From the NCBI GenBank assembly GCA_018992685.1, contig JACVGT010000038.1, positions 1 through 55,942 on the forward strand: a DNA stretch of 55,942 nt, read 5' to 3'. Shown here one piece after another: positions 35,152-43,265 of this stretch. Below the pieces are notes generated by a model, which had not been told where the DNA came from, made no database searches, and was given only the letters and a program-made list of their open reading frames with translations. Source of the DNA: Theionarchaea archaeon. Lineage in GTDB: Archaea > Methanobacteriota_B > Thermococci > Methanofastidiosales > SZ-28-30. A program made the position numbers and the translations under genes. Numbering within the stretch: the stretch's first letter is position 1; each line of letters begins with the position of its first letter.

Positions 35152-35189
35152 CGAAAGATTTATATAGTAGTGTTAATCAATATTGATTA
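35152..35189 (+). promoter_or_regulatory. BRE/TATA promoter with a 16-bp palindrome
   Basis: CGAAAG-A-TTTATATA followed by the perfect palindrome TAATCAATATTGATTA (35174-35189), which overlaps the ATG. Confidence 0.6.
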
Positions 35190-35341
35190 TGAAAAACATC
35201 GACGACATCATTAAGCTGATAAAAGAGGAAGCTACTGATGGATTTTCCGACAGGGCAGATCAGGAATTCTGCAAACTCCTGGACTATGGCTATGAGTTCA
35301 GAAAGGAATTCATGATAAAGCGAATGCAGCAGACCTCGTAG
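35189..35341 (+). CDS. 50-aa leaderless small protein
   Basis: MKNIDDIIKLIKEEATDGFSDRADQEFCKLLDYGYEFRKEFMIKRMQQTS, starting about 22 nt after the TATA box. Confidence 0.6.
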   Translation: MKNIDDIIKLIKEEATDGFSDRADQEFCKLLDYGYEFRKEFMIKRMQQTS

Positions 35342-35356
35342 ACCAGTTCAGGAATT

Positions 35357-35743
35357 TCACAGGATTACGATCCTCCCTTTCCTTTTCGATTCTTTCAGTG
35401 CTTTTTTCGCCAGTGGAAAATCTTTCAGTGCTTTTACAGGGACATCTGCTGTTATGTGTGCAATTCCCACACTGAGAGTCGTTTCACTGATGGTCCTGAT
35501 TTCTTTTCTCATAGTCTCGAGATCCGTGATCATTCTTTCCATGTCTGGATGTGAGCAGTACATCTGGGCTTCTTCTGTTCCCCGTTCAAAATCCAATCCG
35601 TAGAGGATGGTTGCCTGGTGAGTTTTTGCAAAATCTGCCACAGCATGGCTCAAATACCGAGTCACAGGATTCGGGGAATATTCTGTCCATCCCATTTTCC
35701 GGGTGAGCTCACCAAACCTGTCAAGGTCAAGAGCAATGACCAC
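35357..35743 (-). CDS. Stand-alone GGDEF/nucleotidyl-cyclase-like domain protein
   Basis: LDLDRF, ERGTEE, LSVGIA and AKKALKESKRKGR occur in the same order as GGDEF-domain motifs. Confidence 0.65.
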   Translation of the reverse strand: MVIALDLDRFGELTRKMGWTEYSPNPVTRYLSHAVADFAKTHQATILYGLDFERGTEEAQMYCSHPDMERMITDLETMRKEIRTISETTLSVGIAHITADVPVKALKDFPLAKKALKESKRKGRIVIL

Positions 35744-35745
35744 TG

Positions 35746-36351
35746 CTATAGTCTCCCCTCCAGAAAAGGAATCTCGTCAAGAGGTGTCCACATCAGGCCA
35801 CGTTCACGTATTTGAGTGAATCCCATGTTCTGAGGGAGATGAGCGTCAGATCCCAGTGTCAAAGGCAGGTGAAGCCGCTGTGCGTCTTCATACAGCCACT
35901 GGGGAAGATAGACAAGGGCCTTTTCAGAGAGTTCCAGGGAAATATTTTCATCTTTGAATCGTTCCAGCTGGCAGGGTGAACATGAAGCCCCATATGCACA
36001 GGGGTGTGCAATAATGTCAATATGCTTCTGACGAGCCATCTCAAAAGCCTCCTCCAGGGTGTACCGCTGTCTGACATGAGCAAGAGAGTAATCAAAGTAC
36101 TTAGGAATCACAGTATTTGAGGGCACATGGATCTCTGCTCCATAGAATACAGGTATGTCTGCATGATCTTTCAGATATTCCACCTTCTCCCTGATTCTCT
36201 GTGTATTTTTTATGTCATAAGGATAGTGATCCACAAACCCCAGAGCTTCTAGTCCCAACAGTTCAGCCTGCAACATATAGCTGTCGATATACACAGAGTA
36301 ATCCTTTTTCCTGTGATCATGGCCAATGATATGGACGTGGAGATCATACAT
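35746..36351 (-). CDS. PHP-family phosphoesterase
   Basis: DLHVH, GFVDH, GAE, AHP, LGSDAH. Confidence 0.88.
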   Translation of the reverse strand: MYDLHVHIIGHDHRKKDYSVYIDSYMLQAELLGLEALGFVDHYPYDIKNTQRIREKVEYLKDHADIPVFYGAEIHVPSNTVIPKYFDYSLAHVRQRYTLEEAFEMARQKHIDIIAHPCAYGASCSPCQLERFKDENISLELSEKALVYLPQWLYEDAQRLHLPLTLGSDAHLPQNMGFTQIRERGLMWTPLDEIPFLEGRL

Positions 36352-41056: not shown

Positions 41057-42586
41057 ATGAATAGTAGGATCGTTGTCCTCCACAACATTCATGTCGTCTT
41101 CAACTTTCTGGGGTCCACATTCCTTGTACTGAGCGGCATCCTGCTCGTTCCTTTGCTGGTGGCAATCCTCACTGGCGAAATAGATGATGGTCTGATAGTG
41201 AGTGCCTTTGCGTGCCCTGCCGGGATATCCTTGGTCACAGGCGTCGTCTTGAGGAGCGTATTCAAGGGAGATCGGATTTCACCAGTTCAGGCTCTGTTTA
41301 TTTGTGCCCTTGGATGGCTGGGCTTTTCTGCTGTTGGCGCCATCCCTTATGTTATAGCGCTGGACCATTCGTATATTGACAGTGTATTTGAAGCAATGAG
41401 TGGATTCACCACCACAGGAATGACGTTGTTCACAGGACTGGATACCCTGCCAAGGACGATTCTGTTCTGGAGGAGTTTCACTCAGTTTCTGGGGGGTCTT
41501 GGTATTCTAACCTTCTTTCTGGCAATTACCTACCAGGGAGAGAGCTCTCATCAATTATTTGGAGCAGAATCTCACAAAATAGAAGTGCGTCGTCCTGTGC
41601 CTGGACTGGCCAATACCGTAACTATCCTGTGGAGTATCTACACGGGATTCACCATATGCATTGCGCTGGCTCTAATGGCAGCCGGAATGAGTCCTTTTGA
41701 TAGTGTGTGCCACAGTTTTACTACACTGTCTACGGGAGGGTTTTCTCCTCATGATGCAAGCATTGGGTACTACACCATGATTCATCATCCCCATTCAGTG
41801 GTAATCGAGTACATCTTGATTTTTGGAATGGTTCTTGGTGGAATCAACTTTCTGGTTCATTACCGCATCCTCAAGAAAGATGGTAGAGCATTGTGGGACA
41901 ATACTGAAATGAAATACTGGTGGGGATTTATCCTTCTATTCTGTCTCATAATCCTCGGAGAAAGGATACATGCTGTCTCTCTGGCAGAATTTCAAGGATT
42001 AGGGTCAATTGAAGAACATGTCAGGAAGATACTATTCCAGGTGACAGCTATCATCACAACCACTGGATTCTCCACAGTGGACATTGGGTCATCCTTCTTT
42101 GGAGAGGTGGCCAGGCAGCTTTTCCTGGTCCTGATGATGGTAGGAGGATGTGTAGGATCAACAGCGGGGGGATTCAAGGTGTTGCGGGTGGCAATCCTGA
42201 AGAACCTGATAGGACGGGAAGTGTTCCGATTGAGAACACCAAGACGTGCAATTTCCTCAGTGGTGATTGACGGTAAGCCAGTGAGCATTGACGAAATTCA
42301 GCGAGTCGGGGCGTTGTTTTTTGCGTGGATCGTCCTGATTGTGGTGGGAGGAGTTGTAACTACATTTCTCTCAGGGATTTCTGGATACGAATCTCTTTCA
42401 GGTATGTTCAGTGCTGTAGGAAACGTTGGACCTTCTTTTATTTCAGTACAGGTAATGGCATCATTCAACCCGCTGATTAAGATGGTGTACATAGGTGGAA
42501 TGCTGGCAGGTCGCCTGGAGATTCTACCTGTTCTTCTTCTGTTAAGTCCTCGAGCGTGGGGTTCAAAAGGAATGATGAGGAGGTAG
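41057..42586 (+). CDS. trkH: Trk potassium uptake membrane subunit
   Basis: FEAMSGFTTTG, STGGF, TTTGF, GSTAGG, GNVGP, GRLE. Confidence 0.93.
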   Translation: MNSRIVVLHNIHVVFNFLGSTFLVLSGILLVPLLVAILTGEIDDGLIVSAFACPAGISLVTGVVLRSVFKGDRISPVQALFICALGWLGFSAVGAIPYVIALDHSYIDSVFEAMSGFTTTGMTLFTGLDTLPRTILFWRSFTQFLGGLGILTFFLAITYQGESSHQLFGAESHKIEVRRPVPGLANTVTILWSIYTGFTICIALALMAAGMSPFDSVCHSFTTLSTGGFSPHDASIGYYTMIHHPHSVVIEYILIFGMVLGGINFLVHYRILKKDGRALWDNTEMKYWWGFILLFCLIILGERIHAVSLAEFQGLGSIEEHVRKILFQVTAIITTTGFSTVDIGSSFFGEVARQLFLVLMMVGGCVGSTAGGFKVLRVAILKNLIGREVFRLRTPRRAISSVVIDGKPVSIDEIQRVGALFFAWIVLIVVGGVVTTFLSGISGYESLSGMFSAVGNVGPSFISVQVMASFNPLIKMVYIGGMLAGRLEILPVLLLLSPRAWGSKGMMRR

Positions 42587-42590
42587 TTTT

Positions 42591-43265
42591 ATGTTTGTGA
42601 TTGTTGCAGGCGCAGGTATAATTGGGAAGGAAATAATCAAGATCTTGGTAGAGAATAAGCATGATGTCGTGGTTATCGATAGAGACAGGGAGGTCTGTGA
42701 AATGTTGTATGCTGAAACTGGGGCAATGACCATTCATGGAAATGCCACAGACATCCGGGTTCTGGAGGAAGCAGGTGCAGTTCAATCTGATGCCATCGTG
42801 TGTCTCTTACACAGTCATGCTGACAACATTGCGTGTTCACTGCTGGCCAAGAGCCTGGGCATTCCGAGAATCATTGCACGATTGAGAGATCCTCGATATG
42901 AGCAGGCGTATCTGGAAGCAGGGGTCACTACCATTGCTAGTGTTGCTGATTTGTTGATAAACAGGATTATCATGGGAGTGGAGCAGCCCAAGGTAAAGCG
43001 GATCATGTCCCTGAGCGGTGGAGCAGAAATTTATGCTGTTAATATACCGAAAAAGGTACGCATTGCTGGAATGAAGATTAAAGAGGTAACAGGTCAATCT
43101 AAGTTCCCTAAAGAAGTCGTTTTCATGGGTATCTATGATGAACATGACGGAACATTTCTGATCCCCAGAGGAGATCACGTCATGCAACCCGGGTACACGG
43201 TGTTTCTGGTTTCGAAGCCAGAAGACATGAGAAGAGCCACCGACATTCTGACTGAGGAGAAGTAG
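42591..43265 (+). CDS. trkA: Trk potassium uptake RCK subunit
   Basis: GAGIIG, GNAT..LEEAG, TrkA-C IPRGD. Confidence 0.92.
   Translation: MFVIVAGAGIIGKEIIKILVENKHDVVVIDRDREVCEMLYAETGAMTIHGNATDIRVLEEAGAVQSDAIVCLLHSHADNIACSLLAKSLGIPRIIARLRDPRYEQAYLEAGVTTIASVADLLINRIIMGVEQPKVKRIMSLSGGAEIYAVNIPKKVRIAGMKIKEVTGQSKFPKEVVFMGIYDEHDGTFLIPRGDHVMQPGYTVFLVSKPEDMRRATDILTEEK

Follow-up and report, generated by a model that had tools for sequence, protein, structure and literature searches.

What does a minimal, cyclase-like palm domain do beside an intact phosphoesterase gene in an archaeon? The question arises from a stretch of 55,942 nucleotides (nt) from a Theionarchaea archaeon (contig JACVGT010000038.1; hereafter the window), whose host genome, G000, is 91% complete. 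The window holds a gene for a 128-amino-acid (aa) stand-alone palm domain, here called the palm protein, directly preceded by a gene for a PHP phosphoesterase. A preliminary description had proposed that the two genes encode the synthase and the hydrolase of a nucleotide signal. Our analysis places the palm protein among the GGDEF/Cas10/mCpol cyclases, in an archaeal branch that is apparently undescribed and whose active site looks intact. It is very probably an active enzyme that uses nucleoside triphosphates (NTPs). We give a probability of roughly 0.5 to the reading, based on motifs, a predicted fold and analogy to mCpol, that its product is a signalling dinucleotide, made outside defence by a sensorless homodimeric cyclase that would probably use ATP. 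That the PHP protein degrades this product, so that the pair would form a full make/break module, is a more tentative suggestion.

A conserved archaeal palm family

The palm gene and the motifs that define its family are as follows.

35357..35743, minus strand: palm protein gene, GTG start, 128 aa, 15 kDa; stand-alone palm domain of an unnamed archaeal family, predicted nucleotidyl cyclase
35357..35743, minus strand: family pattern DxDxF ... YxPNxxTxxL[ST] ... GLDxxRGTEE ... K120
35714..35728, minus strand: D6-L-D8-R-F10, first metal-binding motif; D6 and D8 invariant in 130/130 proteins
35648..35680, minus strand: Y22-S-P-N25-P-V-T28-R-Y-L-S32, predicted base-reading loop and helix, from conservation and from the role of S30/N34 in mCpol (relevant passages of PMC12657218 and PMC12657230)
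35570..35599, minus strand: G49-L-D-F-E-R-G55-T-E57-E58, a beta-hairpin that is the counterpart of GG[D/E]EF or GGDD, with a family-specific insertion of about 6 residues

The motifs first noticed in this protein, DLDRF (residues 6-10), RGTEE (54-58), LSVGIA (90-95) and AKKALKESKRKGR (112-124), are all present, and the protein carries no added domain and no sensor. The resemblance of these motifs to those of cyclases exceeds chance, as the profile, hhalign, fold and conservation results show. Among 130 distinct palm proteins, D6, D8, N25, G49, G55, T56, E57 and E58 are invariant, F10 is kept in 123 and K120 in 129, Thr occupies position 28 in 128 proteins and Ser in the other 2, and position 32 is always Ser or Thr. 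Because these residues are invariant despite an overall identity of 30-45%, they point to an active site. The proteins form a tightly conserved family, not a decayed gene.

A single query retrieved 38 homologs and a profile retrieved 261. A search of 1.84 billion representatives yielded 39 clusters at E 1e-10 or better, with canonical GGDEF proteins among the last hits only (E 2e-6 to 8e-4). Every named record of the family is archaeal (Desulfurococcaceae, Acidilobaceae, Pyrodictiaceae, Ignicoccus, Ca. Culexmicrobium, Ca. Asgardarchaeum and Theionarchaea), and the named close homologs of the window protein come from Theionarchaea. Most members are annotated as hypothetical by automatic pipelines, and a few as "GGDEF domain-containing protein".

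Genomes were surveyed with the profile of alignment A3. The palm gene was found in 30/301 genomes of Thermoproteota (the phylum of Ignicoccus), in 59/161 genomes of the order containing Ignicoccus, and in 14/62 genomes of the class to which genome G207 belongs; the cultured hyperthermophiles Ignicoccus pacificus and Stetteria hydrogenophila are among the carriers. The Asgard survey matched 33 of 400 genomes, of which 30 matches were strong and 3 weak ones were dropped, whereas in the phylum of the window 6 of 133 genomes matched, with 4 real matches, all from the window's own family, and 2 spurious ones. The two spurious matches, from Thermococcales at E 8e-4, fall in unrelated open reading frames (ORFs), and one of the dropped Asgard matches (L139, in the bin G522) is a canonical GGDEF protein; the latter is membrane-anchored and carries RWGGDEF. 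The gene is present in single copy, the few double matches being fragments at contig ends. None of 35 pattern matches in viral contigs was confirmed, and no plasmid copy was found. Longer fusions were not found among proteins of 346-2000 aa, which is weak evidence. One protein of 292 aa (P0154) joins an N-terminal domain, recognised as Toprim-like from its motifs, to a divergent member of the family in which GTEE has become GTEQ.

Fold, active site and substrate

An AlphaFold model of the palm protein (pLDDT 95) matched palm/cyclase folds over its whole length, in agreement with the fold that had been expected. In VIA-align, where Z differences under 1 were counted as ties, three mCpol structures ranked first to third (Z 12.6-12.9, root mean square deviation (rmsd) 2.4-2.5, 106-107 residues aligned), followed by the class III cyclase Ma1120 (Z 12.0; class III folds overall 10.8-12.0) and the DgcB GGDEF domain (11.7). 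Cas10 palms (about 10-11.3), GTP cyclohydrolase III (GCH III; 2qv6, 10.4-10.6) and Y-family polymerase palms (10-11) ranked lower. In the ESM Atlas, three archaeal clusters lacking a Pfam assignment came out on top, followed by mCpol (0.93), and single-domain GCH_III clusters scored 0.91-0.92. By sequence, the nearest family was GGDEF: hhalign of the palm family against five GGDEF domains gave a probability of 99.3%, and the A3 profile matched diguanylate cyclases of solved structure at E 9e-5. For a Cas10 palm, an hhalign comparison with a single sequence gave an uninformative 0.07%. Since the structure is nearest to mCpol and the sequence nearest to GGDEF, the palm family lies between these two groups and falls within neither. 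Neither the palm protein nor the window PHP protein reached a Pfam or NCBIfam cut-off.

The mCpol/OptS protein of Panoptes (PF18182; 9MNR, 9PD0, 9NWN) makes cyclic di-AMP (c-di-AMP). It is likewise a stand-alone sensorless palm of about 120-150 aa, and it is the best structural match (Z 12.9, rmsd 2.5, 107 aligned). According to the relevant passages of PMC12657218 and PMC12657230, D6 and D57 of KpOptS hold metals in an active site formed by two protomers, S30 and N34 read adenine, and S30N moves the output towards cyclic GMP-AMP (cGAMP). Compared by spacing and not by alignment, D6 and E57 of the palm protein are 51 residues apart, identical to D6/D57 of KpOptS, and T28/[ST]32 form an i,i+4 hydroxyl pair on the predicted base-reading helix, as do the ATP-selecting S30/N34. 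The palm family differs in having GTEE and a 6-residue hairpin insertion where mCpol has a di-Gly di-Asp motif, in its extra YxPN loop, and in occurring as a single copy in archaeal housekeeping regions. A role in Panoptes or other defence was rejected: no 2TM-beta effector or defence genes occur among the annotated neighbours, PADLOC gave no match for the palm or PHP protein, and the viral and plasmid searches were negative. By analogy, the palm enzyme would work most like mCpol, yet it is no member of mCpol, GGDEF or GCH III.

The term "GGDEF-like" in the preliminary description was right for the fold. The DxDxF motif, the hairpin acids and the C-terminal AL..AK..G.N helix align with GGDEF domains (PF00990, including the Hypr cGAMP synthases), K120 falling on the Lys of the "AKxxGRN" helix. 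The palm family nevertheless lacks the GG[D/E]EF motif (G55-T-E-E58 in 130/130), the guanine-binding Asn/Asp pair, the I-site and a sensor. We read the corresponding positions on the assumption that the Asn and Asp residues have the guanine-binding roles they have in PleD. Position 14, which corresponds to the Asn of NDxxG, is Val in 55, Thr in 39 and Met in 13 of the 130 proteins. The place of the xxGD Asp is taken by N25 in the hhalign and HMMER register or by T28 when the helix pattern is followed. A canonical diguanylate cyclase is unlikely in either register; the enzyme more probably uses ATP, alone or together with GTP. A hydroxyl residue in place of the xxGD Asp marks cGAMP synthases (PMC13725321, relevant part), and this hallmark may apply to the palm family if the position is that of T28.

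A divergent but true diguanylate cyclase making cyclic di-GMP (c-di-GMP) would agree with the GGDEF domains being the best sequence relatives, with some database labels and with the existence of archaeal diguanylate cyclases (described in the relevant part of PMC13725321). However, the family has GTEEA for GG[D/E]EF and neither a DxLT turn nor an RxxD site, and all members score below the PF00990 cut-off (14.9 bits against 23.8 for the window protein; the best-scoring member reaches E 3e-5, and 20 of 100 have E values of 0.05 or lower). Because the guanine determinants are missing and the nearest structure is mCpol, c-di-GMP is an unlikely product, and we regard this alternative as most improbable.

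The tie between Ma1120 and mCpol (Z 12.0 and 12.9) brings in a second alternative, a mononucleotide cyclase that makes 3',5'-cyclic AMP (cAMP) or cGMP, with the PHP protein as its phosphodiesterase. No NxAxR-type motif, which we take to be the class III signature, was seen by eye, no PF00211 match was obtained among 100 members at E 0.05, and the C-terminal helix aligns with the GGDEF "ALYxAKxxGRN" helix. Such an enzyme would be a candidate archaeal source of cAMP, and archaeal cAMP-making enzymes are uncharacterised (PMC10249747, relevant part); the patchy distribution of the family, with no Sulfolobaceae among 80 titled loci, would still leave cAMP in Haloferax or Sulfolobus unexplained. Overall, we consider a mononucleotide cyclase quite unlikely.

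A metabolic enzyme resembling a single-domain GCH III (PF05165; 2QV6) had been named as the main alternative, and our results weaken it. The archaeal palm fold is common to both, single-domain GCH_III clusters score well in the ESM Atlas, and the host has no PF05165 match of its own that a palm protein would duplicate. Nevertheless, the palm protein has one domain where GCH III has two and shows no profile match to it; hhalign gave 1.2% or less against either half of the Ignicoccus GCH III, and Ignicoccus carries a PF05165 gene in addition to the palm gene. Lumazine synthase (PF00885), the only riboflavin enzyme sought, was found in one of five palm genomes tested and not in G000, and no riboflavin or pterin genes occur among the annotated neighbours. 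A GCH III-like role is therefore very unlikely.

Two other relatives were compared. The best Pfam hit of the palm protein is Cas10/Cmr2 palm 2 (PF22335, E 6.6e-4; GGDEF E 0.023, both below cut-off), with fold matches of Z 10-11, but the 128-aa protein has neither an HD domain nor a second palm; no cas genes were seen among the annotated neighbours, and G000 has no PF22335 match over the cut-off. Thg1 was rejected, with an hhalign probability of 2.7% (two-sequence GGDEF control, 98.5%), no PF04446 match, and no RxDG/SDE motifs or fingers domain.

The PHP gene and other neighbours

The features of the partner gene are as follows.

35746..36351, minus strand: PHP phosphoesterase gene, 201 aa, HisJ/YcdX/PolX-PHP branch with intact metal site; directly upstream of the palm gene and co-oriented
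35753..35761, minus strand: GGAGGGGAG, possible ribosome-binding site inside the last PHP codons, which would link the translation of the palm gene to that of the PHP gene

The palm gene starts 2 nt after the PHP stop codon, as had been reported, and the purine-rich GGAGGGGAG lies 9-18 nt ahead of its GTG. Nine putative metal ligands of the PHP protein (H5, H7, H11, H42, E73, H92, H116, D169 and H171), assigned from the known PHP motif pattern, are invariant in 12/12 aligned homologs, and its model folds as a PHP barrel; the barrel and the putative ligands correspond to those of known PHP phosphoesterases. The protein scores at about E 1e-6 to HisJ-like models, under the NCBIfam equivalog cut-offs, and its best structural matches lie in the HisJ/YcdX/PolX-PHP branch (Z 17.3, 16.8 and 16.8, the PolX PHP domain being equal to YcdX at 16.8). 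Among the substrates that PHP enzymes cleave are pGpG and further dinucleotides (PMC11528712) and, with weak activity, cAMP (PMC5460133), according to the relevant parts of these papers.

Among the first 80 loci, the PHP link seemed restricted to Theionarchaea, and wider sampling altered this picture. The order PHP>palm was found in 3/3 genomes of the window's genus and in 12/12 metagenome loci, 2 of them cut by contig ends. The reverse order, palm>PHP, was found in 11/11 carriers in the Asgard order of genome G449 and in 6 of 10 further Asgard loci, one more of which has the PHP gene one gene apart, and a single Thermoproteota genome (L085) has TGT>palm>PHP with overlapping frames. The L085 PHP protein matches RNase AM-type structures and, together with the Asgard PHPs (assigned by tree), belongs to the YciV/RNase AM branch. 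In a 31-row tree, a 99/95 branch separated the Theionarchaea PHP from those of the Asgard genomes and L085, and in a 52-row tree the linked PHPs of both Asgard lineages grouped together (SH-aLRT 87, unstarred). Because the Theionarchaea and Asgard/L085 PHPs separate while those of both Asgard lineages stay together, PHPs of different subfamilies were recruited beside the palm gene at least twice. Of 86 families of adjacent neighbours, two are PHP families, for which a post hoc test with assumed PHP densities gave a rough Poisson P of 0.005-0.019.

The two genes may instead be neighbours by inherited gene order, with no shared substrate, which we consider a serious possibility at somewhat less than even odds. 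The loci within each lineage are kin, and the PHP gene stays in place after loss of the palm gene at L225. A calcineurin-like phosphoesterase provides a similar case: considered as a degrader in Desulfurococcales, it lies within two genes of the palm gene for 36/111 proteins, yet it tracks TBP rather than the palm gene, and it was rejected because the same gene is found near TBP in 10/20 genomes without a palm gene. However, inherited order is less easily reconciled with two unrelated PHP subfamilies, opposite gene orders and touching or overlapping frames in three phyla.

For the wider neighbourhood, 64 neighbour proteins picked from 127 neighbour clusters were scanned with Pfam. They included TBP (the usual neighbour in Desulfurococcales-type loci), TGT, FtsZ, reverse gyrase, aminoacyl-tRNA synthetases (TrpRS, LeuRS), methyltransferases, RsmB, TRAM and EMG1. 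The setting is housekeeping-like, not defence-like.

As the neighbours are mostly genes of information processing, such as TBP, TGT, aminoacyl-tRNA synthetases and methyltransferases, the palm protein may instead be a housekeeping nucleotidyltransferase whose substrates are RNA ends or a small metabolite. The PHP protein would then drive the reaction forward or clean up after it, as a pyrophosphatase or by trimming short RNAs. A pyrophosphatase role has been proposed for polymerase-associated PHP domains, and in structure the window PHP matches the PolX PHP domain as well as it matches YcdX. The single copy of the gene, the RNase AM-type matches at L085, the Toprim-like fusion and the Y-family palm matches fit this alternative as well. 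The palm protein, however, has no fingers, thumb or RNA-binding domains, the comparison with Thg1 was weak, two of five palm hosts examined have separate Thg1 genes of their own, and the palm gene is absent from most archaea searched; we regard a nucleotidyltransferase as unlikely.

Several loci have additional features. A gene for a TGT-family tRNA-guanine transglycosylase touches or overlaps the palm start at L008/L115, L085, L116-L118, L120, L121 and L123 (Asgard and one Thermoproteota), and a convergent FtsZ gene comes next in several of these. In Ca. Culexmicrobium and relatives (L011, L012, L016 and L128), a co-oriented gene with four CBS domains, a candidate receptor, lies directly downstream; CBS domains bind adenosyl ligands. 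On the other side of the palm gene, L011, L012 and L016 have a divergent gene for reverse gyrase. In genome G470 (L119/L181), the palm gene is located between a convergent HD_4 hydrolase gene and a divergent nucleotidyltransferase-PHP pair, in a cluster rich in nucleotide make/break enzymes. A co-oriented dual-specificity phosphatase gene follows directly in four Desulfurococcaceae-type loci (L051, L063, L069 and L070).

In the window, the PHP-palm pair is flanked by a convergent leuS and by a divergent pair of helix-turn-helix and S-layer-like genes, and its GC content is ordinary. A 50-aa ORF at 35189-35341 (plus strand), under the usual size cut-off, is convergent with the palm gene and has a TATA-like box ahead of it. 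It is single copy in G000 and had no PADLOC match, and counterparts with 58-82% identity adjoin the palm gene in G001, G002 and 12/12 Theionarchaea metagenome loci. TrkH- and TrkA-like potassium transporter genes, recognised from their translations, lie at 41057-43265 (plus strand), 5 kb from the pair, and a DAC gene is located elsewhere in G000; no conserved link between these genes and the pair was seen.

Proposed activity and its significance

We propose that two palm protomers pair as in mCpol and GGDEF proteins. D6 and E57 would hold Mg2+ and the triphosphate of one NTP, and the helix with N25, T28 and S/T32 of the partner protomer would read the base, probably adenine with some tolerance of guanine. 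Two NTPs would then be joined into a cyclic (or linear) dinucleotide, for example a c-di-AMP or cGAMP isomer. As there is no sensor domain, the enzyme would either be active constitutively or have its output governed by its expression level or a partner. In Theionarchaea, two Asgard lineages and one Thermoproteota genome, the adjacent PHP protein would probably clear the product or a by-product, and hosts lacking an adjacent PHP gene would have to rely on another hydrolase.

A number of observations weigh against this scheme. With regard to the enzyme, the lead of mCpol over the class III cyclase is less than one Z unit and thus a tie; Foldseek puts GGDEF first and mCpol fifth, and sequence profiles also rank GGDEF first. 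The Pfam mCpol profile (PF18182) has no match in G000, nor in the palm protein, 100 members or five Asgard genomes, three of which are palm carriers. The hhalign and HMMER register places N25 on the xxGD Asp, where an Asn would favour guanine. The host already carries a DAC, and no receptor gene is conserved beside the palm family.

With regard to the PHP protein, the nearest structures of the window protein are phosphomonoesterases (HisPPase, Z 17.3), whereas RNase AM reaches only Z 9.6. A PHP gene is adjacent and co-oriented for 30 of 142 distinct palm proteins, a count inflated by deliberate sampling of relatives of PHP-linked genomes (earlier 5/111), and nearby for 2 more, but for 110 of the 142 there is none in the fetched locus. 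A broad PHP hidden Markov model found none in any Desulfurococcales-type locus, the largest group. The PHP and palm genes are unlinked in G003, a genome of the window's own family, and in G893, and PHP genes remain without a palm gene in G894, G794 and 5/7 genomes of family f4. Because PHP is missing from the Desulfurococcales loci, unlinked pairs exist and PHPs persist without a palm gene, the pairing is recurrent but not obligate. The linkage suggested in the preliminary description thus holds across three phyla and two PHP subfamilies, yet not in the majority of loci, and its proposal of a synthase and a hydrolase is supported in part.

More broadly, these genes might represent an old archaeal second-messenger system outside defence, although we hold this doubtful. 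It would combine an mCpol-like cyclase, a dinucleotide of unusual linkage or base mix, a PHP off-switch recruited at least twice and, perhaps, CBS proteins as readers. On this reading, inheritance would account for the cyclase in Desulfurococcales, in Culexarchaea and their relatives, in several Asgard lineages and in Theionarchaea.

Archaeal nucleotide signalling is thinly known. DAC domains are absent from crenarchaea, and archaeal enzymes that make cAMP or degrade c-di-AMP are uncharacterised, according to the relevant part of a 2023 review (PMC10249747); together with the relevant part of PMC8646023, this source also reports no cyclic dinucleotides (c-di-NMP) in Sulfolobus acidocaldarius and no archaeal cAMP synthase that has been characterised. 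In 2026, archaeal GGDEF proteins were surveyed in a study that used a canonical BLAST query as its starting point, found canonical or near-canonical motifs and asked about other clades; its main text, supplements aside, mentions neither the GTEE motif nor the palm-carrying lineages (PMC13725321). The palm group was defined in PMC2904730 and PMC3150331, whose relevant passages do not mention this family. No published description of the family was found in the literature, a search that did not extend to arCOG labels, so that an earlier database label may exist.

The palm family is too divergent for BLAST searches with canonical queries, yet its active site looks complete, and it would add a new branch to the palm group that gave rise to Cas10 and mCpol. 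If our reading is true, the palm protein would be a housekeeping relative of the Cas10/mCpol immune cyclases and the first dinucleotide cyclase from crenarchaea of the Desulfurococcales type, which reportedly lack DAC domains. Cultured hosts make the palm enzyme directly testable, and the palm gene, which has a PHP neighbour in several distant lineages, may belong to an archaeal signalling switch that has so far escaped notice.
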